This document shows positions 51,860-64,000 of a stretch of 64,000 nt of DNA, piece by piece (the stretch's first letter is position 1; the number at the start of each line of letters is the position of its first letter). This DNA comes from a virus, in IMG/VR virus record IMGVR_UViG_3300047392_000164, positions 7,199 through 71,198 of that record. One strand, written 5' to 3'. The translations under genes were made by a program, and so were the position numbers. Under the pieces are notes generated by a model, which was not told the origin of the DNA, searched no databases, and was given only the letters and a program-made list of their open reading frames with translations.

Positions 51860-52299
51860 TGGCTACGAAATATATTACTGAAATGCTTGAGGAGATCAAT
51901 AGTGATCCCAAGCAGATTGAAAAATATAAGACGAATGCAGCGCTGAAGTTTATCTTTCAGCATGCATTCATTCCTGAAAAGAAATTTGAATTGCCGGAAG
52001 GTGACCCACCTTTCAATCCAGACCCAGCGCCGTTGGGAATGTCACGCGCAAATTTCGTTATGGAAACAAAGAAGCTGTACATCTTCACTAAAGAACGTCC
52101 ATTGAACAAAGTTCGCAAAGAACAACTGTTCATCCAACTTCTTGAAAACATTCACCCATCCGAGGCTAAGGTTCTCCTTGCGGTTAAGGATCAGAAGCTA
52201 AATAAACTATATAAGAAGATTACTGCAAAGCTTGCAGCAGATCATGGCTTCATTCCAGAACAGGCAAAAGATGAGGAAAAAGCACCAAAAAAATCTTAA
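51859..52299 (+). CDS. Conserved T4-like hypothetical protein
   Basis: LPEG.PPF, E.LFIQLLE..HP.EA. Confidence 0.75.
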   Translation: MATKYITEMLEEINSDPKQIEKYKTNAALKFIFQHAFIPEKKFELPEGDPPFNPDPAPLGMSRANFVMETKKLYIFTKERPLNKVRKEQLFIQLLENIHPSEAKVLLAVKDQKLNKLYKKITAKLAADHGFIPEQAKDEEKAPKKS

Positions 52300-52486
52300 G
52301 GTTATTCTCTCGATGGAGCAGGAAGAGCTCGCTCACTGGTTGGCAAACTTGCCGGACGACGAAATCGAATACGTTGAGTGGCTGGTTGAAGAAGTTGAGT
52401 CTTCGTTGGACAACATGATCCTTGAACAGGTCGGTCTAGATGAAGCACGAGAAGTAATCAAAAAGTATACACTTCCAAAAGGTTGA
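52271..52486 (+). CDS. Hypothetical protein
   Basis: Similar to 18605..18823. Confidence 0.6.
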   Translation: MRKKHQKNLKVILSMEQEELAHWLANLPDDEIEYVEWLVEEVESSLDNMILEQVGLDEAREVIKKYTLPKG

Positions 52487-52502
52487 CTGCTTTAGTCAAC
52501 TA

Positions 52503-52531
52503 TGTACAATAATTCGTTTCTGTGGTATAAT
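52503..52531 (+). promoter_or_regulatory. Early-type promoter
   Basis: TGTACA-ATAATTCGT..-TATAAT. Confidence 0.8.
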
Positions 52532-52554
52532 TACTCTAACAACTGGAGAAAAAC

Positions 52555-52695
52555 ATGGGAATGATGAAGAACATTTATGCGCAAGTGGAAGATCTTTACT
52601 ATGATGGATACGCTCCAATCGAGATCGCCGAAATGACAGGTCTCCACTTTACTGAAGTGGTTTCCATTCTTGAAGAACTTGGAGAATTCGCTTGA
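52555..52695 (+). CDS. Small HTH-like protein (46 aa)
   Basis: GGAG SD; GY.PIEIAEMTGL; not in the track. Confidence 0.6.
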   Translation: MGMMKNIYAQVEDLYYDGYAPIEIAEMTGLHFTEVVSILEELGEFA

Positions 52696-53981
52696 TTATT
52701 GACATCCTAAACGAAATCGCTGCAACGTCTTCTCGCAATGAGAAGGAAGCAATCATTCGTCGTGAAATCAACAATGAAGATCTGAAGCAAGTTTACTTCT
52801 TGGCTTACGATCCTTTCACTCAGTTTTACATTCGTAAGATTCCTGCTTATACGACTTCGCCTGGTCGAATGGATGGACAAAAGTCTCTTCAATCTGCTAT
52901 GCGAGATCTGAAGGAATTGAGTACTCGTCAAGTCACTGGTAACGCTGCAATTGCATTCCTTGCAAATGTACTATCACTAGTGAAAGCTGAAGATGCTCAA
53001 GTGATTGAACGTATCATCGGCAAAGATTTGAAGTGTGGTGCTTCTGATTCAACTGCTAATAAAGTGTGGCCAGGTCTTGTGCATGATTATCCTTGTATGT
53101 TGGCTTCAGCATACGATGAAAAGCTTGTTGCAAAGATGAAGTGGCCAGCTATGGCACAATTGAAGATGGACGGTATGCGTTTTAATGCCATTGTTAAAAA
53201 TGGCAAGTGCGAATTTCGTTCACGCAATGGTAAGGAAATCGATCTTAAGGGTAACCTTGAAGAAGAGTTTATCAAACTTGCAAACAAACAAGACTTTGTC
53301 TTTGATGGCGAGCTAGTTGTGTTTGAAGATGGTAAGATTCTTGATCGTCAAACTGGTAATGGCATCCTCAACAAAGCTGTTAAGGGTACTATCACCGAAG
53401 AAGACGCCAAGAAAGTTCATGCTACGTTGTGGGATTGTATTCCTTACAATGTGTTTAGCGGTGAGAAGTCTTGCAACATTCCTTATTCGATACGCTTTAG
53501 CATATTGCAAACTGCTGTATCTTTTGATAAGATTCACGTTGTTGAAAGCAAACAAGTTGCTAACATTGATGAAGCGCAAGAAATCTTTAAAGGTTACTTG
53601 GCTGATGGACAAGAAGGCATCATTCTAAAAGATATGAATGCGATGTGGGAGAACAAACGAGCACGTCATTTGATTAAGTTCAAAGGTGAGTTGGAATGCG
53701 ATCTAAAGATCGTAGGTATTCAAGAAGGCACTGGCAAATACGTTGGTAAAGTTGGTGCTTACATTTGTGAGTCTGAAGATGGCATCGTTAAATGCGATGT
53801 AGGTTCGGGCTTCAAAGACAATCAACGTGAAATCGACAACAGTGTTATTGGTAAGATTGTTGCAGTGAAATATAACGCACGGATTAAGAATAAGCAAGGT
53901 GAAGAGTCTCTCTTCCTTCCTATCTTTTTGGAAATGCGTGAAGATAAAATAATTGCAGATTTTAGCAAAAATATTGCGTGA
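52692..53981 (+). CDS. 30: ATP-dependent DNA ligase gp30
   Basis: KMDGMR, DGEL, EGIILK, SLFLP. Confidence 0.95.
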   Translation: MIIDILNEIAATSSRNEKEAIIRREINNEDLKQVYFLAYDPFTQFYIRKIPAYTTSPGRMDGQKSLQSAMRDLKELSTRQVTGNAAIAFLANVLSLVKAEDAQVIERIIGKDLKCGASDSTANKVWPGLVHDYPCMLASAYDEKLVAKMKWPAMAQLKMDGMRFNAIVKNGKCEFRSRNGKEIDLKGNLEEEFIKLANKQDFVFDGELVVFEDGKILDRQTGNGILNKAVKGTITEEDAKKVHATLWDCIPYNVFSGEKSCNIPYSIRFSILQTAVSFDKIHVVESKQVANIDEAQEIFKGYLADGQEGIILKDMNAMWENKRARHLIKFKGELECDLKIVGIQEGTGKYVGKVGAYICESEDGIVKCDVGSGFKDNQREIDNSVIGKIVAVKYNARIKNKQGEESLFLPIFLEMREDKIIADFSKNIA

Positions 53982-54027
53982 GAGCGTAAGAAACGTATAT
54001 ATAATATATCAACACAAAGAGGCAGCA

Positions 54028-54135
54028 ATGCATTTAACTTCTATACTCTCCGCGAAACTAGGTTATGGCTTTAATAGCCAGGCTGACGTACGCCCTACAT
54101 CAATTGAAGGATGGGGTCTAGGGTCTAAGAAGTAA
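54028..54135 (+). CDS. Putative attenuator leader peptide (35 aa)
   Basis: GAGG SD; 31 distinct codons among 35; its 3' end forms the antiterminator strand. Confidence 0.7.
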   Translation: MHLTSILSAKLGYGFNSQADVRPTSIEGWGLGSKK

Positions 54136-54193
54136 GAAGCGCATACGCTCACTCCTCTTAGGCCCTACTGAAAAGTTAGGGCCTTTGTAGTTT
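54119..54193 (+). terminator. Alternative antiterminator/terminator
   Basis: 54119-54130 pairs with 54156-54167 (12 bp), or 54160-54167 pairs with 54177-54184 followed by TTGTAGTTT. Confidence 0.7.
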
Positions 54194-54197
54194 CTAG

Positions 54198-54313
54198 TGT
54201 ACAATAATTCGTAGGTGTGTTACAATACATCTACTGTCTGGTAAAACAGACAAACATCGGTAAGAAAAATATTTTTCCAAACGGTGTACAAATAATCGTA
54301 GTTGATGTATAAT
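54198..54313 (+). promoter_or_regulatory. Tandem promoters of the tRNA array
   Basis: TGTACA-17-TACAAT and TGTACA-17-TATAAT. Confidence 0.8.
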
Positions 54314-54323
54314 ACATCTCTAC

Positions 54324-54351
54324 TGCTGATAAAGCAAATGTTCTTTTAAAA
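54324..54351 (+). promoter_or_regulatory. Small hairpin plus boxA-like antitermination site
   Basis: TGCTGATAAAGCA followed by TGTTCTTTTAAAA. Confidence 0.55.
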
Positions 54352-54367
54352 TTCAACGGTATTTTGT

Positions 54368-54441
54368 TCCCTGATGGTGTAGCGGTAACACAACTGACTT
54401 TGACTCAGTCGTCCCAAGTTCGAACCTTGGTCGGGGTGCCA
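54368..54441 (+). tRNA. tRNA-Gln(UUG)
   Basis: Cloverleaf, loop CTTTGAC, CCA. Confidence 0.9.
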
Positions 54442-54531
54442 TATTGAAATACATTCAAGCAATGACATGGCTGGTAGGCATGTATCTTGCTGGACTAAAG
54501 ACCTACTACGTCTGAGTGTGTTTCAATATGG
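54439..54531 (+). repeat. CCA-pairing long hairpin, copy 1
   Basis: CCATATTGAAATACATTCA / TGAGTGTGTTTCAATATGG. Confidence 0.8.
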
Positions 54532-54537
54532 TTTAAT

Positions 54538-54611
54538 CTGGGTGTAGGATAGTGGTAGTCGACGAGTCTTGGATACTCGAGGTGCAAGTTCGATTCTTGC
54601 CTCCCAGACCA
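54538..54611 (+). tRNA. tRNA-Pro(UGG)
   Basis: Cloverleaf, loop CTTGGAT, CCA. Confidence 0.85.
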
Positions 54612-54622
54612 CAAGTTTTTTT

Positions 54623-54711
54623 GGTGTGTGTTCCCTTCAGCGGTCTGTAAAATCGTTGTCTTAAATTTGAAGGGTGGCAGACAGATGGTTCGATTCCTTC
54701 ACACACCACCA
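54623..54711 (+). ncRNA. D-armless tRNA-Tyr(GUA)-like RNA with pseudoknot
   Basis: Acceptor stem, GTA loop, T arm, ACCA; CCCTTCA pairs with TGAAGGG. Confidence 0.7.
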
Positions 54712-54716
54712 GTTTT

Positions 54717-54791
54717 GGGGACAGCTCAGGGGAGCGGCGGTGCCTTGCAAGTTCCGTGACTAGAAGGGTTCGATACCCTCGGTCTCCACCA
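54717..54791 (+). tRNA. tRNA-Ala(UGC), atypical
   Basis: G3:U70, loop CTTGCAA, short D arm, extended anticodon stem. Confidence 0.7.
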
Positions 54792-54797
54792 AGTTTT

Positions 54798-54896
54798 AGG
54801 ATGGTTGCAGCAAACAATACTTAAGGTTCGATTCCTTATTTTGCCACCAATACTCGGCAGAGTCGCTCAATGGAGAGCATCAACCCATCCTGTTGT
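54798..54896 (+). ncRNA. CAGCA-module RNA enclosing a circularly permuted tRNA
   Basis: T arm and ACCA precede the 5' acceptor strand and D arm, inside an AGGATGG/CCATCCT stem. Confidence 0.75.
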
Positions 54897-54903
54897 ATTT
54901 TAT

Positions 54904-54993
54904 GGTGTGGTCCTATAATGGTATTAGAGCGGATTGCTAATCCGTCGGCTCACGAAAGTGGGCTTCTGAGTTCGAGTCTCAGTCACACCGCCA
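54904..54993 (+). tRNA. tRNA-Ser(GCU)
   Basis: Long variable arm, loop TTGCTAA, G73. Confidence 0.9.
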
Positions 54994-54998
54994 ATTTT

Positions 54999-55098
54999 GG
55001 GAAATGTGCGTAAGGTACGCAAAACAAAAGTATTCTGTAAAGAATATTTGCAGCATCAAATAAAACACTAGTTGGTTCGATTCCAGCATTTCCCGCCA
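54999..55098 (+). ncRNA. tRNA-like RNA with the CAGCA module in place of the anticodon arm
   Basis: Acceptor, D and T arms, GCCA; GTATTCT-GTAA-AGAATAT-TTGCAGCA. Confidence 0.7.
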
Positions 55099-55104
55099 AA
55101 CAAT

Positions 55105-55180
55105 GCGTGCTTAGCTCAGTTGGTAGAGCAGAACGTTGCCAACGTTCAGGTCGCAGGTTCGAACCCTGTAGCCCGCACCA
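55105..55180 (+). tRNA. tRNA-Gly(GCC)
   Basis: Loop TTGCCAA; unusual A73. Confidence 0.85.
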
Positions 55181-55190
55181 CTTTCGGTTC

Positions 55191-55265
55191 GCGCTTATAG
55201 CTTAATGGTAAAGCAGCGAACTCATAATTCGTTGAGTCTAGGTTCAATTCCTAGTGAGCGCACCA
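55191..55265 (+). tRNA. tRNA-Ile2/Met(CAU)
   Basis: Loop CTCATAA. Confidence 0.85.
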
Positions 55266-55299
55266 ATTTATTTTTGAGGTAGAAAATGTAGGAGAAATC

Positions 55300-55860
55300 A
55301 TGTCACACGTCTTAGCTTTAGATGCATCAGGTTTGCCACGGAAGTGGATCAACTATGAAGATGCTATTACATACTTTGCAAAGGGAATGGTCGTCTGGTC
55401 ACTAGGTGAAACAGTCGCAACTTTCCATGGTGGAGTACAAAAGGACGGTGTGATGTCGATACTCGAAACACCTTCTATCATTGCTGTAAAAGGCAAAGGA
55501 TTCAATCTTGAACGCGCTGGTAAGGTTATCTTGACAAACAAGACTTTGTTTGCTCGTGACCGACATGTATGTGCTTATTGCGGTGACAAATTTGCTAACT
55601 CTCATTTGTCTCGTGACCACGTACATCCAGTATCTCGTGGTGGTGAAAACACTTGGATGAACTGTGTAACAGCATGTATCAAGTGCAACACTCAAAAAGG
55701 TGCACGCACTCCAAAGGAATTTGGACATGACCTTTTGTATGTGCCATACGAACCTAACCATTTTGAAAACATGATTCTCCAGAATAGAAACATTCTGACA
55801 GATCAAATGGAGTACTTGATGGGTGGAGTTCCAAAGCACTCACGTATTTTGATGAATTAG
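55300..55860 (+). CDS. HNH endonuclease
   Basis: RD..CAYC, DHVHP.SRGG..W.N...C..CN..K. Confidence 0.9.
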   Translation: MSHVLALDASGLPRKWINYEDAITYFAKGMVVWSLGETVATFHGGVQKDGVMSILETPSIIAVKGKGFNLERAGKVILTNKTLFARDRHVCAYCGDKFANSHLSRDHVHPVSRGGENTWMNCVTACIKCNTQKGARTPKEFGHDLLYVPYEPNHFENMILQNRNILTDQMEYLMGGVPKHSRILMN

Positions 55861-55866
55861 TAACAT

Positions 55867-55943
55867 GTACGGGTGCCCGAGCGGCCTAAGGGGACTGATT
55901 GCAAACCAGTTATTCGTGGGTTCAAATCCCACCCCGTACTCCA
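55867..55943 (+). tRNA. tRNA-Cys(GCA)
   Basis: Loop TTGCAAA, U73. Confidence 0.9.
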
Positions 55944-56130
55944 GATCATAAAATGGCTCAAAAAGCCCTATATGAATCAACAACTTATGTGACTGAAATG
56001 CACCAGAATGCATTCTAGATCACATAATGTATATCCTACCGCTTGAGTGACATACGTTCATTCTGGCAGCTGTAGTACTTTGGTACTACTTCTTAATAGT
56101 TGACAAGAACAGTAAACTATTAAGAAGTGG

Positions 56131-56159
56131 TGTACAATAAATCGAGATCGTGATATAAT
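56131..56159 (+). promoter_or_regulatory. Early-type promoter
   Basis: TGTACA-17-TATAAT. Confidence 0.75.
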
Positions 56160-56190
56160 TACTCTATCAAATCAAGAAGGAGTAGTTCAA

Positions 56191-56382
56191 ATGGCTCGTA
56201 AATCAAAAGACATCGTCACTATCGTAGACGGCGTGAAAGTTACTCAATGTGCTTATCGCGGTCCACGTCGAGGTGAAGGTACTTATGACATCAACAAGTC
56301 GAAGTATACCGTTTGGGCACAGACTGTGTCTAAGTACACACGTGGTACAAATGGTGTTCTTGGAACTGTCGAAAGAATTTAA
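56191..56382 (+). CDS. Small basic hypothetical protein
   Basis: AGGAG SD and its own promoter. Confidence 0.7.
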   Translation: MARKSKDIVTIVDGVKVTQCAYRGPRRGEGTYDINKSKYTVWAQTVSKYTRGTNGVLGTVERI

Positions 56383-56400
56383 AAATAGTTCACTTAATTG

Positions 56401-56471
56401 TGTACAACAAATCGTAGATAGTGTATAATCTCTATCTACTTGCTTATAAAGCAAATACCGTTCTTTAAAAA
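56401..56471 (+). promoter_or_regulatory. Promoter, hairpin and boxA-like site of the second tRNA operon
   Basis: TGTACA-17-TATAAT; TGCTTATAAAGCA; GTTCTTTAAAAA. Confidence 0.7.
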
Positions 56472-56573
56472 TTTATAGGTGAACTTTCTAAGTCTTCGGT
56501 CGAATACGAAGCTTAAGTTCACCGTTTTTAAACTTGTTAGAAGCATGACATGTCGTGAGACATCGCTTCTTAT

Positions 56574-56648
56574 GCTGGGTTCGTCTATCGGTTAGGACAC
56601 ATGCCTTTCACGTATGTAAGACGGGTTCGATTCCCGTACCCAGTACCA
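56574..56648 (+). tRNA. tRNA-Glu(UUC)
   Basis: Loop CTTTCAC. Confidence 0.9.
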
Positions 56649-56710
56649 TTTTTAAACACACTGCCGAACAATCAAATTGCTTAGCAGATGAGTAGTGTGT
56701 TTAAAAATGG
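56646..56710 (+). repeat. CCA-pairing long hairpin, copy 2
   Basis: CCATTTTTAAACACACT / AGTGTGTTTAAAAATGG. Confidence 0.8.
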
Positions 56711-56714
56711 TAAT

Positions 56715-56790
56715 GCTCTGTTAGCTCAATTGGGAGAGCGCGACACTGTCACTGTCGAGGTAAGGGGATCGAAACCCCTACGGGGCGCCA
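56715..56790 (+). tRNA. tRNA-Asp(GUC)
   Basis: Loop CTGTCAC, G73. Confidence 0.9.
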
Positions 56791-56799
56791 AGTTTTTAT

Positions 56800-56875
56800 G
56801 CAGATATAGCTCAGACGGTAGAGCAGTAGCCTGAAAAGTTATGTGTCGCTGGTTCGATTCCAGCTATCTGCACCA
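56800..56875 (+). tRNA. tRNA-Phe(GAA)
   Basis: Loop CTGAAAA. Confidence 0.9.
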
Positions 56876-56882
56876 AGTTTAT

Positions 56883-56957
56883 GCCCTTGTAGCTCAGAGG
56901 AAGAGCAAACGCTTGATAAGCGTTAGGTCGACATTTCGAAATTGTCCAAGGGTACCA
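56883..56957 (+). tRNA. tRNA-Ile(GAU)
   Basis: Loop TTGATAA. Confidence 0.9.
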
Positions 56958-56962
56958 GTTTT

Positions 56963-57020
56963 AGGATTCATTCAGCAAATAAAAATCTTTTTGGAATAAA
57001 GAAAAAGCGAATCCTGTTGT
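56963..57020 (+). ncRNA. CAGCA-module RNA enclosing a lone anticodon stem-loop (GGA)
   Basis: AGGATTC/GAATCCT; TCTTT-TTGGAAT-AAAGA. Confidence 0.7.
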
Positions 57021-57024
57021 TTTT

Positions 57025-57109
57025 GGAGGTGCCGCCGTAATGGTATGGCAGGAGACTGTAAATCTTCCGACTTATGTCACAATTGGTTCGATCCCAATCA
57101 CCTCCACCA
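57025..57109 (+). tRNA. tRNA-Tyr(GUA)
   Basis: Loop CTGTAAA, variable arm. Confidence 0.9.
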
Positions 57110-57117
57110 AGTTTTAT

Positions 57118-57192
57118 GGCCTAATCATATAGTGGTTATTATACCTGCCTGTCTAGTAGGATATCGGGGTTCGATTCCCCGTTAGGTCGCCA
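57118..57192 (+). tRNA. tRNA-Asp(GUC), second copy with U37
   Basis: Loop CTGTCTA, G73. Confidence 0.8.
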
Positions 57193-57198
57193 GTTTAT

Positions 57199-57274
57199 TC
57201 CCTAGTAGCACAGCGGTAGTTGCACTTGACTGTTAATCAAGGTGTCCGTGGTTCGATCCCACGCTGGGGAGCCA
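57199..57274 (+). tRNA. tRNA-Asn(GUU)
   Basis: Loop CTGTTAA. Confidence 0.9.
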
Positions 57275-57360
57275 GAGCAAATAGAGATCTTGTTTTGATG
57301 CATGGTCTCTCAACGGTTGTCAATGACGATGGGTGATAGTTAGGAATTGACAAGAATTAT

Positions 57361-57438
57361 TGTGGTAGAGCAAGCATGGTGTAGGCGCTTCGCTGTTAAC
57401 GAAGAATGAGCTAGGTTCGATCCCTAGTACCACAGCCA
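57361..57438 (+). tRNA. tRNA-Asn(GUU), second copy with atypical D arm
   Basis: Loop CTGTTAA, G73. Confidence 0.8.
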
Positions 57439-57444
57439 AGTTTT

Positions 57445-57510
57445 AGGATAGGTTCAGCAAATAAAAGCATTCAACTTGTAATTGAAAAAAGCTAAAAACT
57501 ATCCTGTTGT
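57445..57510 (+). ncRNA. CAGCA-module RNA enclosing a lone anticodon stem-loop (UGU)
   Basis: AGGATAG/CTATCCT; TTCAA-CTTGTAA-TTGAA. Confidence 0.7.
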
Positions 57511-57514
57511 TTAT

Positions 57515-57591
57515 GGGGATGTGACGCAATTGGTAGACGTACTGGTCTTAGAAACCAGGTCCTGTGGGTTCGAGTCCCACCATCCCCACCA
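57515..57591 (+). tRNA. tRNA-Leu(UAG), short variable arm
   Basis: Loop CTTAGAA. Confidence 0.85.
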
Positions 57592-57594
57592 AGT

Positions 57595-57745
57595 TTTGTA
57601 AGTGTAGATGTTGTGAAAGTAGGAACTCGAAATCCCTGTGAGTTGTCCGTACGACAACCTTGTAGCAACTAATACTACGTACCTCTAACCCTAACGTATA
57701 CTGGGCGAAATGGTTCCGAATGAGAGAGGCGGAACTACTTACAAA
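57595..57745 (+). ncRNA. Unclassified structured RNA
   Basis: Closing stem TTTGTAAGT/ACTTACAAA and internal hairpins. Confidence 0.55.
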
Positions 57746-57798
57746 TTCAATCTCGCCTTGACTTATGGCGTACAATGTGATAAGTAGTAAGTCATTTT

Positions 57799-57873
57799 AG
57801 ATTGTAAACTTTGATGGTGAAGTCCGGCCTCTTAAGCCGAGAGAACCCAGTTCGAGTCTGGGACGATCTACCA
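57799..57873 (+). tRNA. tRNA-Lys(CUU)
   Basis: Loop CTCTTAA. Confidence 0.85.
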
Positions 57874-57978
57874 TATTGAAATACATTTGAATGCTTAGGC
57901 CAAGCAGATGTAGCGGATTACAGCCCGATAGCTTTCGGGTAGGCAGGTTCAATTCCTGCGAAGTGTATTTCAATATGG
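57871..57978 (+). repeat. CCA-pairing long hairpin, copy 3, enclosing tRNA-like arms
   Basis: CCATATTGAAATACATTT / AAGTGTATTTCAATATGG; internal GCAGG-TTCAATT-CCTGC. Confidence 0.8.
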
Positions 57979-58051
57979 GCTGTTAGTGATAATGGGAGCA
58001 CGAGGCCTTTGCACGGCTTAGGTGGGAGTTCGATCCTCCCACGGTCCACCA
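57977..58051 (+). tRNA. tRNA-Ala(UGC)
   Basis: G3:U70, loop TTTGCAC. Confidence 0.85.
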
Positions 58052-58057
58052 AAATTT

Positions 58058-58184
58058 GGAGATGTGATGTAATGGTAGCATAGCATAGCAAAAAGTCAAT
58101 TCTGTAAAGAATTGTTTCCGCATACCTATAGCTCTAACTCTGTAAAAGTTCTTGTCCGCGGTTCGAATCCCGGCATCTCCACCA
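58058..58184 (+). ncRNA. tRNA-Tyr(GUA)-like RNA with an inserted CAGCA-type module
   Basis: Cloverleaf with an insert of about 50 nt containing CAATTCT-GTAA-AGAATTG-TTTCCGCA. Confidence 0.7.
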
Positions 58185-58362
58185 AGTATACTAAGACAAT
58201 GTTTAGTAGTATGAGTAGACGGAAACCGACCCTTGCGAGACTGCGGGGGCTTCACGAAAGTGACGATGCGAAAGTAAGTCGGTCCAGTAGGGGTATGAAA
58301 AACATTGTTAGCGGTCCAGTTGCCAAAGGACAAAAGTTATAATTGACATAACGCCGTGTATT
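58185..58362 (+). ncRNA. Unclassified structured RNA
   Basis: Nested stems ACAATGTTT/AAACATTGT and ACCGAC/GTCGGT, GAAA tetraloops. Confidence 0.6.
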
Positions 58363-58376
58363 CCTTTAAGAATTTT

Positions 58377-58451
58377 GCGCTCGTAGTATAATGGAGAATA
58401 CTCTAGGCTACGAACTTAGTAATGGTGGTTCGATTCCATCCGGGCGCACCA
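58377..58451 (+). tRNA. tRNA-Arg(ACG)
   Basis: Loop CTACGAA. Confidence 0.9.
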
Positions 58452-58456
58452 ATCAT

Positions 58457-58531
58457 GCCGAATTAGCACAGCGGTAGTGCAATCGCCTTGTAAGCGATAG
58501 GTCGTCTGTTCGAACCAGACATTCGGCACCA
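58457..58531 (+). tRNA. tRNA-Thr(UGU)
   Basis: Loop CTTGTAA. Confidence 0.9.
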
Positions 58532-58534
58532 GAA

Positions 58535-58676
58535 TTAGTCGGAGTAATTAACCGAAAAGTAAGTAGTAGACCTCCATGGCACCGCGGATGGTCTTTGCAG
58601 ATAAGTCCTGCGTCAGGTGTCCGAAAGGGTAGCACTTGAGAAACACTGGGGTAAGAGTCCCAAGTTTGTGCCAGCA
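58535..58676 (+). ncRNA. Unclassified pseudoknotted RNA
   Basis: Loop TGGCAC is complementary to distal GTGCCA; four hairpins. Confidence 0.55.
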
Positions 58677-58682
58677 ATTTAC

Positions 58683-58757
58683 ATCGCATTCGACTTCAGG
58701 TGAGGTCATCACCCTTTCAAGGTGACTAGACGGGATCGTTACCCGTATGCGATACCA
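58683..58757 (+). tRNA. tRNA-Glu(UUC), second copy
   Basis: Loop CTTTCAA, T loop ATCGTTA. Confidence 0.85.
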
Positions 58758-58762
58758 TATAA

Positions 58763-58849
58763 GCCTAGGTGCAGGGAATTGGTAGACCGGCAACGTTGAG
58801 AACGTTGTGACTGAAATATGTGGGAGTTCGAATCTCCCTCTAGGCACCA
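58763..58849 (+). tRNA. tRNA-Leu(GAG)
   Basis: Loop TTGAGAA. Confidence 0.8.
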
Positions 58850-58855
58850 AAATTA

Positions 58856-58928
58856 CGCGGGTAGTGCGGAAACACTCCAGTCTCATAAGCTCGGAGCATC
58901 GGCAGTTCGAATCTGTCACCCGCATCCA
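58856..58928 (+). tRNA. Initiator-like tRNA-Met(CAU), atypical
   Basis: C1:A72 mismatch, loop CTCATAA, reduced D arm, bulged anticodon stem. Confidence 0.65.
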
Positions 58929-58932
58929 ATAT

Positions 58933-59007
58933 GCGTTAGTAGCTAAATGGCATAGCAGGAGCCTCTAAAACTCTGAGCAGTGGGTTCGATTCCCATCTAA
59001 CGCACCA
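58933..59007 (+). tRNA. Amber suppressor tRNA (CUA)
   Basis: Cloverleaf, loop CTCTAAA, ACCA. Confidence 0.85.
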
Positions 59008-59008
59008 T

Positions 59009-59083
59009 GGATGTATAGCACAGCGGTAGTGCATCTCCTTCATACGGAGCAGGTCAGTAGTTCGAATCTACTTACATCCACCA
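59009..59083 (+). tRNA. tRNA-Met(CAU), elongator
   Basis: Loop TTCATAC. Confidence 0.88.
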
Positions 59084-59095
59084 TATATAATTCAT

Positions 59096-59172
59096 CGGAG
59101 TATAGCACAGCCTGGTAGTGCGCTTGCTTTGGGAGCAAGAGGTCGCAGGTTCGATCCCTGCTACTCCGACCA
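59096..59172 (+). tRNA. tRNA-Pro(UGG), second copy
   Basis: Loop TTTGGGA. Confidence 0.9.
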
Positions 59173-59190
59173 TTTTTAACTAAGGACATT

Positions 59191-59457
59191 ATGATTGTTA
59201 CACCATTGAAAAAGAACGTGCTTGTTGCAGAAAACAAGCGTGAAAACACAACTGAAAGCGGTATCGTTATTCAAGGTGCAGAAGGTTTAGGCGAATCAAA
59301 GTCTGGAAAAGTCCTTGCAATTGGATCTGAAGTTACCGATGTTAAAGTTGGTGATACGATCTATTTGATGTGGAACAAAGCAAAGCTTGTTAAGATTGAT
59401 GGCGCACAGCGTGTGATCATTTCTCAAGACGACATCGTAGCAGTCTTAGAAGATTAA
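59191..59457 (+). CDS. GroES-like co-chaperonin
   Basis: PL...VLV, TESGIV, G.VLAIG, VKVGD. Confidence 0.88.
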   Translation: MIVTPLKKNVLVAENKRENTTESGIVIQGAEGLGESKSGKVLAIGSEVTDVKVGDTIYLMWNKAKLVKIDGAQRVIISQDDIVAVLED

Positions 59458-59463
59458 TTGTTT

Positions 59464-59537
59464 GCTCTTTTAGTATAATGGCATTACACTACATTGGTAA
59501 TGTAGAAACACTGGATCGTAACCAGTAAGGAGCACCA
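59464..59537 (+). tRNA. tRNA-Thr(GGU)
   Basis: Loop TTGGTAA. Confidence 0.85.
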
Positions 59538-59546
59538 GGAGTTCAT

Positions 59547-59726
59547 ATGAGTAAAATGAGTGATGGCGGCAAAGGTAGTGGTCGTAGACCCAACGATGTC
59601 GATGATAAAAAGATAGAAGACAATTGGAATAACATCTTTGGTATGTCTCCACTTGAACGTAAGAAACGTGAAGAAGCACTGCAAAAGCTTGCAGAAGCTA
59701 ATAAAGAATTAGGTTTAGAATACTAA
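59547..59726 (+). CDS. Small hypothetical protein (59 aa)
   Basis: GGAG SD; GGKGS.RRP...NW..IF; not in the track. Confidence 0.65.
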   Translation: MSKMSDGGKGSGRRPNDVDDKKIEDNWNNIFGMSPLERKKREEALQKLAEANKELGLEY

Positions 59727-59730
59727 TAAT

Positions 59731-59808
59731 GCGGACATAGCGCAATAGGTAGGAGGCAACAGACTTAAAATCTGTACAGTGCGGGTTCGAATCCCGCTGT
59801 CCGTACCA
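59731..59808 (+). tRNA. tRNA-Leu(UAA), short variable arm
   Basis: Loop CTTAAAA. Confidence 0.85.
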
Positions 59809-59813
59809 AATAT

Positions 59814-59887
59814 ATCTCGGTAGTGTAATGGCAGCATACCAGTCTCCAAAACTGTTGGTCGGGGTTCGAGTCCCTGCCGGGATGCCA
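59814..59887 (+). tRNA. tRNA-Trp(CCA)
   Basis: Loop CTCCAAA, G73. Confidence 0.9.
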
Positions 59888-59964
59888 AGTTGTGTTGCAA
59901 CTAATCAGGGGTGCTTGCGTTCTCGCCCTGTTAAAAACAAAAATATGACGCAGCCAAGTTTAAT

Positions 59965-60056
59965 GGAAAGTAATGCAGCGGGGTTGGTCCTGCGACCAGC
60001 CTTGAAAACTGGGTTCTCCTAACGGGGATGGGGTTCGACTCCTCTGCTTTCCGCCA
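59965..60056 (+). tRNA. tRNA-Ser(UGA), 8/4 fold
   Basis: 8-bp acceptor GGAAAGTA/TGCTTTCC, 4-bp T stem, loop CTTGAAA. Confidence 0.8.
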
Positions 60057-60059
60057 GAT

Positions 60060-60207
60060 TTTGAGATAGACGTAGAGATTGAGTCCCTTGTATTCTAGTG
60101 CCCTATTCTTGAGCATGACACACCAGTAGAATTGTACAAGGTTAGCATAAACTCTCTCATACGAGACAACCCAGCGAGTCCTTAAGAAAGATAGTTGGTC
60201 TCTCAAA
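60060..60207 (+). ncRNA. Unclassified structured RNA
   Basis: TTTGAGA/TCTCAAA closure, CCTTGTA/TACAAGG arm, TTCTTGAG complementary to CTTAAGAA. Confidence 0.55.
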
Positions 60208-60215
60208 CCCTATAT

Positions 60216-60303
60216 AGTGAGTTGGCAGAGTGGCTTAATGCACCACCTTGGAAAGGTGACGATCCGAAAGGGTCCGAGAGTTCGAATCTCTCACTCACTG
60301 CCA
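60216..60303 (+). tRNA. tRNA-Ser(GGA)
   Basis: Loop TTGGAAA, long variable arm. Confidence 0.9.
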
Positions 60304-60307
60304 TTAT

Positions 60308-60383
60308 GCGGGTATAGCTCAGTTGGTAGAGCACTTCCTTGCCAAGGAAGATGTCGAGAGTTCGAGTCTCTTTGCCCGCTCCA
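60308..60383 (+). tRNA. tRNA-Gly(GCC), second copy
   Basis: Loop TTGCCAA, U73. Confidence 0.9.
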
Positions 60384-60397
60384 TTTTAGGATACATT

Positions 60398-60544
60398 ATG
60401 AATGAATATGGAGTACCTTTACATGCATGCAACGGTCATCGTCATGATGAACATTATTGGGCGTGGATGAAGTGGGTTATAGAAAATTGTATATGTTTAG
60501 GCTCAGATGGCGAAAAAGTATTTTACAAAAAGCCTATACATTAA
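60398..60544 (+). CDS. Small hypothetical protein (48 aa)
   Basis: AGGA SD after the tRNA. Confidence 0.45.
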   Translation: MNEYGVPLHACNGHRHDEHYWAWMKWVIENCICLGSDGEKVFYKKPIH

Positions 60545-60569
60545 TTCGTCAATGTGGTATAATTAGTCT

Positions 60570-60845
60570 ATGATAAACGAAAAAGAACATGAAATCATGT
60601 CGATCACTCAAGAAGAGTGTGCAGAGGTCATTCAAGCTATAAGCAAGATTAACCGATTTGGTTTTGATGGTAGACATCCTGAAAAAACATACAACAATCG
60701 TGAACACCTTGAAGAGGAAGTTGGCGATGTATTAGCAATGATTGATTTGTTGCTAGAAAACGACATTGTGTCTTGGGCTAATGTGAACAAGGCACGTAGA
60801 AAGAAATTTGAGAAGCTCCAGCAATGGAGCACTGTAATGAATTAA
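60570..60845 (+). CDS. MazG-like pyrophosphatase
   Basis: EECAEVIQA.SK..RFG, LEEEVGDV; ATG 6 nt after TATAAT. Confidence 0.8.
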   Translation: MINEKEHEIMSITQEECAEVIQAISKINRFGFDGRHPEKTYNNREHLEEEVGDVLAMIDLLLENDIVSWANVNKARRKKFEKLQQWSTVMN

Positions 60846-60846
60846 T

Positions 60847-60920
60847 GCGGGATTGGTATAGGGGTTGTGCCCTAGTCTTCCAAACTAGAGAGACCAGTTC
60901 GAGCCTGGTATCCCGCTCCA
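60847..60920 (+). tRNA. tRNA-Gly(UCC)
   Basis: Loop CTTCCAA, U73. Confidence 0.9.
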
Positions 60921-60946
60921 TTTAACTTTAACTAGGAGAACGAAGT

Positions 60947-61078
60947 ATGAAATCGAAACCGATCGCTAAAGAACGTAACTGCTTCGTTCGTTTAGCGTTA
61001 TTCCGAAAAGCAGGGTCGCACCGTAAAAGCAATAAGGCTTTACGTAAAGCGGCAAACCAATCTAATCATTGGGCCTGA
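60947..61078 (+). CDS. Small basic protein (43 aa) whose stop codon lies inside tRNA-Lys
   Basis: AGGAG SD; MKSKPIAKERNCFVRLALFRKAGSHRKSNKALRKAANQSNHWA*; not in the track. Confidence 0.7.
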   Translation: MKSKPIAKERNCFVRLALFRKAGSHRKSNKALRKAANQSNHWA

Positions 61079-61144
61079 AACTTTAAGGTGAAGTAACTGG
61101 CTTTTAACCAGTAAAATTCGGATCGTTACCGAACGGGCCTACCA
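61071..61144 (+). tRNA. tRNA-Lys(UUU)
   Basis: Loop CTTTTAA, T loop ATCGTTA. Confidence 0.88.
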
Positions 61145-61254
61145 TATAAAAACATACTCCAGGTTGGGTTGAATTCGCGGTTCAACTATTTGGGTATCAT
61201 GGACTAGATAATTACTAGCACCGATACTAAGATACGTAGTGTGTTTCTATATGG
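61142..61254 (+). repeat. CCA-pairing long hairpin, copy 4
   Basis: CCATATAAAAACATACT / AGTGTGTTTCTATATGG. Confidence 0.75.
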
Positions 61255-61258
61255 TTAT

Positions 61259-61333
61259 GGTGGCTATGGTGTAATGGAAGCACCCAACTCTGTGAAAGTT
61301 GTAGCACGGGATCGTTACCCGTTAGTCACCCCA
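61259..61333 (+). tRNA. tRNA-His(GUG)
   Basis: G-1:C73, loop CTGTGAA. Confidence 0.9.
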
Positions 61334-61340
61334 ATATTAT

Positions 61341-61415
61341 GCCTCGTTAACTCAGTGGTAGAGTGCTTCCTTTACACGGAAGAGGTCGGCAGTTCGAAAC
61401 TGTCACGAGGTACCA
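61341..61415 (+). tRNA. tRNA-Val(UAC)
   Basis: Loop TTTACAC. Confidence 0.9.
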
Positions 61416-61519
61416 ACTTTAAAAGGAACTTCTATGAAAGCGCTTGCCTAGATTTTACACCCTCCGTAATTTCTTTATTGTCTTTATCATGCAATCAATT
61501 AATCAATAAGGAAATCTAT

Positions 61520-61888
61520 ATGTGTATCGAATTAAAAATCAAATCTAAACATCTCGCCCTTGAGCCTTCTATCATTCGTTCAGAAGAAGAAAAGCTTAAG
61601 AAACAAATGAAGTATCATCGTAGTGATGATAAAGAAAGTTCCTTTACATTGGAACGTAAGTTAAACAACTTAGTCAATCATCGTAAGTGGAATGTTCGTA
61701 ACGAAGCACGAGCAACACACCTTGCACGAGCATATATTGCTGGTAAAGCATATGCTTCTGTTGAGAAATCACGTAACGATGAAGGCTTATTTAGAAATTA
61801 CATTGTTATACGTATTGTAGCAATGGTACAACGATATGGAGATCGTAAGGTCACTAGCGATATGATTCGCGAGTGGGCTAAGGTCTAA
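61520..61888 (+). CDS. Conserved phage hypothetical protein
   Basis: AAGGA SD; HR...VR.EARATHLA.AY..GK.Y..VE. Confidence 0.75.
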   Translation: MCIELKIKSKHLALEPSIIRSEEEKLKKQMKYHRSDDKESSFTLERKLNNLVNHRKWNVRNEARATHLARAYIAGKAYASVEKSRNDEGLFRNYIVIRIVAMVQRYGDRKVTSDMIREWAKV

Positions 61889-61895
61889 GAAATAT

Positions 61896-61999
61896 AGGAT
61901 AGTTTCAGCAAACCCAACGCAACGCCAATGGATGGCAATTTGACTTCTAATCAAACCTTGTGGGTTCAATTCCCACTGCAAAACAACTATCCTGATGAA
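61896..61999 (+). ncRNA. CAGCA-module RNA enclosing an acceptor-less tRNA-Arg(UCU) body
   Basis: AGGATAGTT/AACTATCCT; D arm, TTTGA-CTTCTAA-TCAAA, T arm. Confidence 0.75.
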
Positions 62000-62002
62000 T
62001 AT

Positions 62003-62076
62003 GTCTCATTAGCTCAAAGGTAGAGCACTGCTTTGACATAGCAGATACGGCGGATCGTTACCGTCATGAGATACCA
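62003..62076 (+). tRNA. tRNA-Val(GAC)
   Basis: Loop TTGACAT. Confidence 0.88.
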
Positions 62077-62090
62077 ACTGAAAGCTTATT

Positions 62091-62726
62091 ATGTTAACAT
62101 GTATTCAAGTGCCGCAGTTCATGCATCCACCACAAAAGTTCATTGATAAAGCTCGACAGCTTACTAAAGAACTTGCTGATGGAACATGTGAACAAGAACC
62201 AATCAATTCTGGTCTCTTCAATAAAGGTTATACAGAACGTACTTACATTCGACATGGTGTAGAAACACCAACTCGTGTAGGTAGAATGTATTCTCTTGGA
62301 GATGACTTCATTCAATGGGTGAAGGATTACCTACATCCACATCCAGATGAAACTGGATTGAATGTTCTCAAGCCATTTGACTGTCCTATCATGGGGCCAC
62401 ATATTGACACAAAGCGTAAGTACGTACTGTTCTACCCAATTGCATTAGGTGGCGACAATGTACAAACAGTCTTCTATAAAGAACCCGGTCATACGATTGA
62501 TCGTTCACATTCACTTGGACCAAGTGGTGTAGGTTATTATGTAAGAGACTATAAAGATTTAGAAGCTATTGATCAGATCAACATGCAAATTGGCGTGTGG
62601 TATTTGATGAATCCTAAGGTTATCCATAGCGTAGAGAACGTACATGGTCCGCGATCCATGATTACTGTAAGCTTACCCGACATGGATCAATTTCCTTGGA
62701 AGAATAGGATTCCAGCTCAAGAATAA
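62091..62726 (+). CDS. Putative 2OG-Fe(II) oxygenase-fold protein
   Basis: PHID...IHSV...R. Confidence 0.6.
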   Translation: MLTCIQVPQFMHPPQKFIDKARQLTKELADGTCEQEPINSGLFNKGYTERTYIRHGVETPTRVGRMYSLGDDFIQWVKDYLHPHPDETGLNVLKPFDCPIMGPHIDTKRKYVLFYPIALGGDNVQTVFYKEPGHTIDRSHSLGPSGVGYYVRDYKDLEAIDQINMQIGVWYLMNPKVIHSVENVHGPRSMITVSLPDMDQFPWKNRIPAQE

Positions 62727-62727
62727 T

Positions 62728-62804
62728 GGGGATGTGACGCAATTGGTAGACGTGCTTGATTCAAAATCAAGATTCTGTGGGTTCGAGTCCCACCTTCCCC
62801 ACCA
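62728..62804 (+). tRNA. tRNA-Leu(CAA), short variable arm
   Basis: Loop TTCAAAA; body nearly identical to Leu(UAG) at 57515. Confidence 0.88.
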
Positions 62805-62809
62805 AAAAT

Positions 62810-62832
62810 AAAAGCACCTTCGGGTGCTTTTG
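62810..62832 (+). terminator. Intrinsic terminator ending the tRNA array
   Basis: AAAAGCACC-TTCG-GGTGCTTTT. Confidence 0.9.
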
Positions 62833-62845
62833 TCCGTTCTAGGTG

Positions 62846-62853
62846 TATAAATA
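62846..62853 (+). promoter_or_regulatory. T4-type late promoter
   Basis: TATAAATA after the terminator. Confidence 0.75.
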
Positions 62854-62913
62854 AAATTAGGTAATGCAACGTTACCTAATAAGATCAAATAATAAAAATA
62901 ACAAAGGAATCTT

Positions 62914-63162
62914 ATGAGAAAAACTACTAAGACGATTACGGAAATTACCCATGAACATGGCGTCATTTCCTTCGAACTTCCCGCGTACGAAGCTCTTCTA
63001 GACCTAGCGTCTACAGATGGGTGCCGTGACGAGCACAGAGACATCATTGTTGAAAGAACAAAGACTATCTCTGAGGAAATCGAAGGAGAGCCATTGAAAG
63101 AGGATCACTTACCGGCAATCGTAGCAGGCACTCCTGCAGCTACAGCTCTCGCTGCAGCTTAA
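62914..63162 (+). CDS. Hypothetical protein
   Basis: AGGA SD. Confidence 0.65.
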   Translation: MRKTTKTITEITHEHGVISFELPAYEALLDLASTDGCRDEHRDIIVERTKTISEEIEGEPLKEDHLPAIVAGTPAATALAAA

Positions 63163-63257
63163 GTTATAAATCCATAACAAAGAATTAGGGTAATCCCTAC
63201 GTTTGCTGTGACGCGCACAGTATTTCCATAAAACTATAAAAACAAAAGGAAAATAAA

Positions 63258-64000
63258 ATGGCAGAAATTCTACAACCTAGCGGTATGATGATGAGTGGTG
63301 GTGACGGTGGTCTTGGCTTTGGCTCGGGCGGTGGTTTAATTGGTGGTCTAATTCTTGGTACGCTCTTGCGTCAAAACGGTGGTGGTCTATTCGGTGGTGG
63401 TAACGGCGATGGTTCAGCAGTTACAGCTCAAGGTACAGCTAACATGTCTTTGATGCAAGCAATTGGTCAAGTTGATAAAGCAGTTGCCGTTGGTACTGCA
63501 GCAATGGAAGCTTCACAAGCTACACAAACAATTGGTATCACTGGTCAATTGAACAGCGTAACATCTTCACTTGCAAGTCGTGTTGATGGTGTTAAAGACG
63601 TTATGAATACAAATAACGTTGCTAACATGCAATCTCAAGCTATGCTTCTACAAAATGCAATGGCTAACACTGCAACGATTAACCAAAACATCATGGAAAA
63701 TCGTTATGAGTTATCTAAAGATATTGCAGCTGATGGTGAGAAGACTCGTGCTTTGATTACATCACAATATGAAATCAACCTACAACGTCAGTTGGCAGAT
63801 GCTAATGCAGCTATCATCGAACTACGTAGCCGTGAGTTCTCTGGTTCTGCAGCACGTGGTGTTGAAGTTACTACAACTAACAACATCAATCAAATGCAAC
63901 AGCAGCAACAGCAGCAACAGCAGTTTGGTCAATTGTCCAATTTGATTTGGTCTTTAGGTCAAAGCATTCGTTCTAACAACGAAGCAATCAACGTTGGTTC
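63258..64000 (+). CDS. Gly/Gln-rich hypothetical protein, runs off the window
   Basis: AGGA SD; open frame MAEILQPSG...GGLILGTLL...DGEKTRALI... Confidence 0.7.
   Translation, partial: MAEILQPSGMMMSGGDGGLGFGSGGGLIGGLILGTLLRQNGGGLFGGGNGDGSAVTAQGTANMSLMQAIGQVDKAVAVGTAAMEASQATQTIGITGQLNSVTSSLASRVDGVKDVMNTNNVANMQSQAMLLQNAMANTATINQNIMENRYELSKDIAADGEKTRALITSQYEINLQRQLADANAAIIELRSREFSGSAARGVEVTTTNNINQMQQQQQQQQQFGQLSNLIWSLGQSIRSNNEAINVG

Follow-up and report, generated by a model that had tools for sequence, protein, structure and literature searches.

The 64-kb stretch of virus DNA analysed here, hereafter the window, comes from a 71-kb IMG/VR virus record (IMGVR_UViG_3300047392_000164, positions 7,199 to 71,198) and carries, ahead of a long array of tRNA genes, a short open reading frame (ORF) followed by an intrinsic terminator. 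From the sequence and its comparison with relatives, we consider it probable that this element is a ribosome-mediated leader-peptide transcription attenuator, which would sample nearly all aminoacyl-tRNAs and gate read-through into the tRNA genes. A preliminary description of the window had proposed an attenuator of this kind, in which the leader would act as a sampler of codons. The comparative evidence supports the interpretation and extends it by a fourth pairing segment, by the amino-acid completeness of the leader peptides, and by analogues in unrelated sequence. The leader ORF is real and its composition is selected, not that of a chance ORF. Its main conserved property is the presence of one of each amino acid, and the sampling of codons is a second, weaker signal.

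The leader ORF (54028..54135; this and the other features given below with two-dot coordinates lie on the + strand) has 35 codons, of which 31 are distinct, and covers 19 amino-acid kinds and 27 of the 32 classes of the decoding-class scheme that was applied to each leader. A Shine-Dalgarno (SD) sequence, GAGG, is located at 54019..54022, 5 nucleotides (nt) ahead of the ATG at 54028. The preliminary description had reported this SD and the 35-codon ORF with its peptide, a run of 29 different codons from the start, 31 distinct codons overall, four codons each for Gly and Ser, and 19 kinds of amino acid, and a recount agrees on every point, with Cys as the absent kind. Its estimate of about 3e-4 for 29 draws without a repeat was recalculated as 3.2e-4 under uniform usage. 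No other of the 412 ATG-initiated ORFs in the window with 29 codons or more has a run of 29 distinct codons, the runner-up reaching 19. Stop-free stretches of 35 codons reach such a run in 2 of 32,240 cases, both of which appear, by our own reading, to start in the leader ORF, and 0.18% of them hold at least 31 distinct codons. None of 200,000 ORFs simulated with the codon usage of the phage began with 29 different codons, and a total of 31 or more distinct codons out of 35 occurred with a frequency of 5.5e-4.

Homologs of the element were collected by several routes. A search with the DNA ligase encoded just upstream led to 80 viral loci with a ligase protein identity of about 56–73%, and in approximately 20 of these a recognisably homologous element stands after the ligase gene, or after the ligase gene plus an additional small gene, and ahead of tRNA-Gln. 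Searches with nhmmer gave 24 full-length copies, including that of the window, and two pattern scans of viral contigs contributed six copies; the comparative set consists of 26 nucleotide-distinct copies. A loose terminator-plus-promoter pattern returned 120 stretches, mostly unrelated, with the element in only a few. The metagenome scan returned nine stretches (eight from known lineages and one without such an ORF) and contributed a few near-identical copies and one new peptide. A covariance model matched four larger records, once in each, and found no match in five more distant genomes nor in G010, a 29% complete record. The leader family is narrow, since a profile search of 1.84 billion protein representatives yielded only six small clusters besides one spurious match of 1,164 amino acids; the new peptides from this search comprise, by our own count, one with 20 kinds of amino acid, one with 19, and one with 16. 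Four leader peptides that were searched against Pfam had no match.

The leader frame is open from the ATG in all 26 copies, over lengths of 31–43 codons, whereas the +1 and +2 frames are open in none (0/26). The ATG is invariant or nearly so among 21 aligned copies, and substitutions between 44 close pairs fall at codon positions 3, 1, and 2 in the numbers 264, 187, and 117. By our own reading, the SD of most homologs is a purine-rich stretch 5–10 nt before the ATG. Two leaders, those of L039 (region 5443-5485) and of locus L225 in relative G002 (region 1360-1397), have no SD and begin with an ATG within about 10 nt of a promoter-like –10 element, and they may be translated from a leaderless or nearly leaderless mRNA, as judged from this spacing.

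Completeness of the amino-acid set is the property that most clearly sets the leaders apart. All 20 amino acids are present in 20 of the 26 leaders, even though these are only 31–43 codons long, and the remaining leaders have 17–19 kinds. By comparison, only 18 of 3,513 distinct ATG-initiated ORFs of 28–45 codons in 1.68 Mb of fetched loci hold all 20; 16 of the 18 are leaders and the two non-leaders are 43–44 codons long. Stop-free stretches of 33 residues hold all 20 in 150 of 303,517 cases, about half of them in leaders according to a rough reading of their positions. Each leader has 8–12 amino acids that it uses a single time, and none of the kinds is clustered. The alignment positions of the rare residues vary by lineage, with Cys at 5, 10, or 21–23 and His at 3, 4, 7, or 16, and therefore completeness has been kept by turnover and not only by descent.

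The choice of synonymous codons adds a further signal. Given their peptides, 15 representative leaders together use 449 distinct codons versus 409 +/- 6 expected from phage usage and 427 +/- 6 from uniform usage, and cover 390 decoding classes versus 355 +/- 5 and 366 +/- 5, respectively. The expectation is exceeded by 14 of the 15 representatives for distinct codons and by all 15 for decoding classes. Comparison of related phages for conserved codon diversity had been suggested in the preliminary description, and such diversity is found: the ORF is kept in 26/26 copies and synonymous codons are more varied than expected. The idea of a codon sampler thus holds in that the synonymous codons are over-diverse, but the sampling of codons is secondary to the completeness of the amino acids.

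The RNA around the end of the ORF can adopt two exclusive structures. The preliminary description had paired 54119-54130 with 54156-54167 over 12 base pairs (bp), to the exclusion of a hairpin at 54160-54184, and this pairing is real, with one G-U pair. The 12-bp duplex has a free energy of –18.8 kcal/mol, a value equalled by 1% of 200 dinucleotide shuffles, and is the preferred fold of the naked RNA. Its 5' strand (segment 1, the antiterminator 5' strand; 54118..54131) spans the last codons of the ORF, with the stop codon at 54133-54135. Its 3' strand (segment 2; 54156..54167) consists of the terminator 5' arm plus 4 nt upstream. The terminator (54160..54195) has an 8-bp stem with arms at 54160-54167 and 54177-54184, a 9-nt loop, and a T-rich tail, with TTGTAGTTTC following the stem, and a free energy of –14.7 kcal/mol. 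The window hairpin was not listed by a simple terminator scan because its loop has 9 nt and the scan takes 3–8. In the comparative set, a terminator with an A-tract before it and a T-tract after it is found in 26/26 copies, at –13 to –24 kcal/mol. On the alignment, 95% of cells are paired in the terminator and five of its eight pairs are changed on both sides. The same fraction of cells (95%) is paired in hairpin hp1 (TGGCT / AGCCA with a 5-nt loop; 54066..54080), in which two pairs show compensatory changes. Taken together, the terminator and hp1 have seven pairs changed on both sides, and their covariation score was not reached by any shuffle.

Support for the antiterminator and for the additional helix described below, P1, comes from duplexes computed for each sequence separately. 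Throughout the 26 copies, the terminator 5' arm has its best upstream partner in the last 15–20 nt of the ORF, at –13 to –20 kcal/mol, and in 22 of them the duplex is better than 95% of dinucleotide shuffles. The stop codon overlaps the antiterminator strand or directly adjoins it in 25 of the 26 copies; in L065 the stop lies 15 nt past segment 1. Strands paired with their own partner reach a mean of –16.5 kcal/mol, versus –12.8 kcal/mol when partners are swapped between lineages, and none of 20,000 permutations was as good. The clearest covariation is that of L005, in which AGAGC stands opposite GCTCT where others have GGG(T/C)C opposite G(G/A)CCC. Covarying alternative stems in relatives, for which the preliminary description had proposed to look, are therefore present: the terminator covaries, and the antiterminator strand co-varies with the terminator arm.

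Segment 1 also pairs with nt 5–30 of the ORF. In the window, the 5' strand of this helix (P1) is segment 0 (54036..54054), which pairs with segment 1 and acts in the model as an anti-antiterminator. P1 closes a three-way junction with two arms: a long helix that ends in hp1, and a hairpin holding an invariant TGG. In the window, hp1 is the tip of the longer helix P2, and the TGG is included in hairpin P3 (CCT.CATC / GATGGGG; 54094..54116), as given by a single-sequence fold; by eye, P3-like hairpins are present in most homologs. The support for P1 is weaker than that for the antiterminator, with a mean of –12.6 kcal/mol for own partners versus –10.8 kcal/mol for swapped ones (permutation P 0.004). 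The flanks of hp1, which form P2, pair as well (self –6.7 versus cross –5.7 kcal/mol, P 0.013). When the states are forced, those with the terminator are 2–18 kcal/mol more stable than those with its 3' arm blocked. P1 appears in 24/26 of the terminator-state folds, and the antiterminator in 24/26 of the folds with the 3' arm blocked. The trp-like geometry with a stop codon in the antiterminator strand, as originally proposed, is upheld, with the amendment that the ORF start can also pair with the antiterminator strand, so that untranslated RNA should terminate, as in trp. The features of an attenuator that were tested for, namely a short ORF before a terminator, mutually exclusive helices, the placement of the stop, and an upstream pairing, were all found. 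An Rfam search (cmscan over 52000-64000, E up to 1) gave no family at 54008-54195, and specifically no leader, riboswitch-aptamer, or T-box match at the switch; the matches were of the tRNA type or due to chance.

More distant relatives that bear tRNA arrays have no match to the covariance model, and the DNA just before the arrays of four of them (G001, G002, G003, and G005) was inspected. In G002, an ORF of 37 codons, unrelated in sequence to the window element, encodes all 20 amino acids with 32 distinct codons, and its stop codon abuts an antiterminator strand (–20.5 kcal/mol), which is followed by a terminator (–18 kcal/mol) and an array of 31 tRNA genes with 20 isotypes. In G003 the design recurs, with 30 codons and 15 amino-acid kinds in the ORF and an array of 13 tRNA genes with 11 isotypes behind it. 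The leader contains ten of these 11 amino acids, and of the five that it lacks, four have no tRNA in the array either; the overlap is only suggestive, with P about 0.10 in our own hypergeometric calculation. Both G002 and G003 have the ORF, the terminator, and the stop-in-antiterminator design, but not the interior helices. Leaders of the 'pangram' type thus accompany the full-set arrays, and the one reduced array has an ordinary leader, which is a single contrast. The correspondence between leader and array holds for full-set arrays, but its details do not fit in the window (Cys) or in relative G006 (His and Val).

The following mechanism is proposed for the element. Transcription from the TATA(A/T)ATA motif upstream, and probably also from the ligase operon, would cross the 31–43-codon ORF. 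In the OFF form, segments 0 and 1 would be paired with each other and segments 2 and 3 would make up the terminator; in the ON form, segment 1 would pair with segment 2 and the terminator would be blocked. With no ribosome on the RNA, the OFF form should win. If the ORF is read quickly and completely, the ribosome would occupy segment 1 and the stop codon as the terminator is being transcribed, and transcription would end. An early stall for want of any aminoacyl-tRNA would hold segment 0 away and leave segment 1 free, the antiterminator could then form, and read-through into the tRNA genes would follow. More tRNA would restore decoding, which would close a negative feedback loop. The switch would add to the constitutive early expression from the array's own promoters and would not replace it. 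What we infer from these arrangements is that the ORF is translated, that the upstream motif is a promoter, what each state leads to, and which signal is sensed. A further-reaching reading, which we offer tentatively and with less assurance than attenuation itself, takes the leader as a near-minimal 'pangram' ORF, with a codon per amino acid distributed over the decoding classes, that would read the whole aminoacyl-tRNA pool as part of a homeostat on the translation apparatus in phages with large tRNA arrays. Any shortage would then open the array, for instance after host tRNA decay or anticodon-nuclease cleavage.

Several observations weigh against the attenuator, or against parts of it. Counted by alignment columns, only 60% of antiterminator cells are paired, and RNAalifold applied to the MAFFT alignments gives only hp1 and the terminator and no antiterminator; the per-sequence duplexes with swapped-partner controls were used because the MAFFT columns are out of register for the antiterminator. 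A nearly invariant Glu and an invariant Trp are located only about 6–12 nt before segment 1. A ribosome stalled at either would probably mask segment 1 and lead to termination, and because such a ribosome would cover segment 1, these residues may be kept for the structure of P3 and not for sensing. A stall in the middle of the ORF leaves segments 0 and 1 both free, and it is assumed that P1 fails to form in that case. The peptides have gaps in the window (Cys), L005 (His, Val), L006 and L008 (His, Lys, Val), and L011 (Phe, Pro), and the arrays of the window and of G006 do carry tRNAs for the residues absent from their leaders. The SD is weak in some copies (L005 and L006) and absent in L039 and L065. 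The element is absent from some close relatives (L010 and L024), and two of the four distant relatives inspected (G001 and G005) have no leader just upstream of the inspected array start. Since the copies are related, the P values given here are too small and the independence of the copies is overstated. One or two promoters of the array lie downstream of the switch, so that the switch gates only transcription derived from upstream and is not the main control of the array. Finally, the contigs from RNA libraries described below show presence only, and speak neither for nor against expression or regulation.

Two other readings of the conserved element deserve weighing, both of which we regard as unlikely. 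In one, the ORF is an ordinary small, possibly late, gene with a functional peptide and its own terminator, which also ends the ligase operon, and read-through is unregulated. The promoter-like motif, SD, ORF, and strong terminator would indeed make a complete unit; the substitution bias toward third positions indicates some constraint on the peptide, which is partly conserved (N.Q, R, and E.W), and the array has its own promoters. Such a gene leaves unexplained the location of the stop codon within or beside a strand that co-varies with the terminator 5' arm, the pairing of the same strand with the start of the ORF, and the presence of all 20 amino acids in 20/26 peptides, unlike in the control ORFs. 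Moreover, the nucleotides of hp1 and the CAG that follows are read in another frame in L039 and are therefore conserved at the level of RNA, and the peptides tested have no Pfam match.

That same conservation in L039, of nucleotides and not of peptide, would suit a switch made of RNA only, in which a ligand (as in a riboswitch, or a protein or tRNA) stabilises the P1/P2/P3 three-way junction and the ORF is incidental or secondary. The architecture resembles that of an OFF-riboswitch, the 3' strand of P1 being a switching sequence shared with the antiterminator, and hp1/P2 covaries. An RNA-only switch is nevertheless improbable in our judgement, as it leaves unexplained the invariant ATG, the contrast of 26/26 open leader frames with 0/26 in the other frames, the all-20 composition, and the over-dispersed synonymous codons. 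In G002 and G003, the interior helices are not kept, in contrast to the ORF, the terminator, and the design with the stop in the antiterminator strand, and the region 54008-54195 has no Rfam family at E up to 1. As for a chance ORF in an intergenic spacer beside an unregulated terminator, one such ORF in 64 kb is, post hoc, only moderately unlikely given the 0.18% of stop-free stretches mentioned above, but this reading is refuted by the conservation of the ORF (26/26 frames open), with its ends and composition kept across lineages at ligase identities of only 57–73%, and by the recurrence of the design in unrelated sequence in G002 and G003, and we hold it to be very improbable.

The attenuator is thus the reading we retain, and its genomic setting is as follows. 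The source of the window is a freshwater phage, read as an uncultured, distant T4-like one because the window encodes a gp43-type DNA polymerase, a helicase, a ribonucleotide reductase, and a DNA ligase; the polymerase has 47–52% identity to those of T4-like cyanophages and one unclassified phage. A DNA search of the phage collection with 53600-54700 gave no match, and ligase and polymerase searches of the same collection gave relatives that all have less than 60% identity, with no cultured relative at hand. Parts of the stretch are contained in 16 metatranscriptome runs from 14 studies, labelled as freshwater. For the region 52600-55400, contigs of four freshwater-labelled metatranscriptome runs represent relatives that are 90–99% identical, on account of which the clade is probably common in lakes. 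The leader is covered by contigs in two of these four runs (X1 and X3), and the X3 contig, which corresponds to 53895-54436 with 25 other letters, spans the terminator; these contigs carry no information on ends, strand, or level, and DNA carry-over is possible.

The features leading to the tRNA array begin with the DNA ligase gene (52692-53981), which is followed by the promoter-like motif CGTATATATA at 53994..54003, upstream of the leader ORF. The preliminary description had noted a sequence resembling a late consensus at 53994, and the motif is present there. Among the 21 aligned copies, it is the best-conserved block before the ORF, with T9, A10, T11, A12, A14, T15, and A16 invariant or nearly so, and most homologs carry CGTATAAATA at this position. 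This TATA(A/T)ATA-type motif has what we take to be the form of T4 late promoters. Given this form and the gp43-type polymerase, the transcription input is probably late, plus read-through from the ligase operon. The upstream neighbour varies among the copies at ligase loci, being either the ligase directly or the ligase with one of several small genes. Some relatives lack the element: in L010 the ligase and a small gene are followed directly by tRNA-Ser, with tRNA-Gln absent as well, and in L024–L026 and L032 an ORF of about 200 amino acids sits between the ligase and tRNA-Met.

Downstream of the switch, the order is constant, with one or two promoters, a GTTCTTT(A/T)AA stretch, and then tRNA-Gln (tRNA-Lys in L015); in every copy with enough downstream sequence, this tRNA gene is located approximately 160–290 nt after the stop codon. 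The two phage promoters of the window (GTGTACAA-N16-TAYAAT; 54197..54313) lie between the switch and the tRNA genes, at 54197-54226 and 54284-54313; the preliminary description had noted two early promoters downstream, and its caveat that the switch could gate only read-through or late input stands in view of these promoters. Allowing up to two mismatches, the consensus GTGTACAA-N16-TAYAAT has 16 matches in the window versus 1.4 expected, 15 of them on the + strand; examples are the sites at 42998, 49206, 54197, 54284, 56130, and 56400. The first promoter is followed by a small hairpin at 54236-54251 (GTCTG-GTAAAA-CAGAC), a position at which other lineages carry a hairpin of another sequence (GTCAATC...GATTGAC), so that the structure is kept and the sequence is not. 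The stretch GTTCTTT(A/T)AA(A/C)A (54340-54351 in the window) is conserved in every homolog after the promoter or promoters and the hairpin. It resembles the boxA of rRNA operons and by this analogy suggests a Nus-type antitermination of the tRNA operon.

The tRNA array, the proposed target of the switch, extends over 54368..62804 and comprises 36 genes identified by ARAGORN, with tRNA-Gln first and all 20 isotypes present. The count of 38 tRNAs in the preliminary description is not borne out by ARAGORN. Rfam adds one tRNA match over the cut-off (61919-61980) and one just under it that overlaps an ARAGORN gene. There are also two tRNA-Sec-like Rfam matches below the cut-off and without an ARAGORN gene, at 54622-54708 (27.9 bits) and 59965-60052 (36 bits), which are probably unusual long-arm tRNAs or tRNA-like RNAs. 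Behind the element, the number of isotypes is 20 in the window, 20 in G006, and 19 in G007, a complete relative of 166.8 kb. An amber-suppressor tRNA (anticodon CTA, 'Pyl' in ARAGORN) is located inside the window array at 58933-59007, and a second one is present in the array of the distant relative G002 (L230). Six of the 26 leaders end in TAG. A link between TAG-ending leaders and the amber suppressor was considered and rejected, as the window has a suppressor and a leader ending in TAA, whereas G006, with a TAG-ending leader, shows no suppressor in its set of 23 tRNAs.

Phage tRNA genes are usually seen as helpers for codon usage or as replacements for tRNAs lost to host defence, and to our knowledge little has been established about how their expression is controlled. 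If the attenuator operates as proposed, the phage would probably make extra tRNAs through the switch only when ribosomes run slowly, and attenuation could sense the whole decoding capacity of a cell and feed back on the supply of tRNA. Lack of any amino acid of the leader would then raise read-through, and lack of Cys would not do so for the Cys-less leader of the window. The arrangement could represent a general and so far undescribed rule for the control of viral tRNA genes, under which the composition of a leader would predict the tRNAs on which the phage depends. At about 190 nt, it would also be a compact natural element that senses translation speed and could serve as a reporter.

The leaders of enterobacterial amino-acid operons include those of trp, his, leu, and phe and the multivalent leaders of thr and ilvGMEDA. 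As in trp-type leaders, a short ORF precedes an intrinsic terminator; four segments can pair as 1:2 plus 3:4 (stop) or as 2:3 (go); and the stop codon is placed such that a finishing ribosome would cover the equivalent of trp segment 2, with untranslated RNA expected to terminate. Unlike trp-type leaders, the phage leader is without runs of a single amino acid and holds roughly one of each of the 20, and a three-way junction is closed by the counterparts of trp segments 1 and 2, which are separated by about 65 nt. The target is also different, being tRNA genes and not biosynthetic enzymes, and the element is borne by a phage. Tandem or clustered codons of a regulating amino acid, the hallmark of trpL, hisL, leuL, pheL, thrL, and ilvL, were found in none of the leaders. 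The T-box riboswitch binds one uncharged tRNA directly and has no ORF. It is similar to the phage element in that a choice between terminator and antiterminator is coupled to the state of the tRNA pool, whereas the phage element has a conserved ORF and no T-box match in Rfam.

The leader attenuators of amino-acid operons are summarised in an article that also treats, in the sections available to us, the upstream ORF (uORF) of mycobacterial whiB7 (PMC10274678). According to these sections, efficient translation of the whiB7 uORF leads to a rho-independent terminator and poor translation to an antiterminator; the amino acids that are sensed are those present in the uORF, and a single Trp codon is needed to sense the lack of Trp and suffices for it (PMC10274678). 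The M. smegmatis uORF contains every amino acid but Cys, and whiB7 uORFs are described there as Ala-rich (25–40%), variable in length, and in control of a transcription factor (PMC10274678). As a general sensor of translation stress, the whiB7 uORF, as portrayed in that part of the article, is the closest published system found. The broad amino-acid content and the geometry of the phage leader fit a uORF of this kind, and its behaviour is a proposal based on its sequence. Compared with whiB7 as it is characterised there, the phage leader is near the minimal length for 20 amino acids, has codons spread over the decoding classes, lacks an enrichment in Ala, and would act on the tRNA supply itself.

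In the antibiotic-responsive attenuators of mef/mel and yxjB, a ribosome stalled in the leader ORF turns the terminator off, as stated in the portions of the two articles consulted (PMC4335068, PMC6851288). Unlike the stalls proposed here, those of mef/mel and yxjB are, in the same portions, specific to drug and peptide, and their targets are resistance genes. The trn tRNA array of Anabaena is induced by translational stress (PMC8421152, PMC10272220), and its control is attributed, in the available text, to a protein repressor, TrcR (PMC10272220); the available text of PMC8421152 contains none of the words 'attenuat', 'leader', and 'terminator'. As far as these texts go, the trn array is like that of the window in being a long accessory tRNA array tied to impaired translation, and unlike it in residing on a bacterial plasmid and not in a phage. 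A search of full-text literature, with most subscription journals and supplements outside its coverage, found no leader-peptide control of phage tRNA genes. The logic of attenuation is known, and what distinguishes the phage element is a leader with a near-complete set of amino acids, the lack of runs of any one of them, and a target that consists of tRNA genes.

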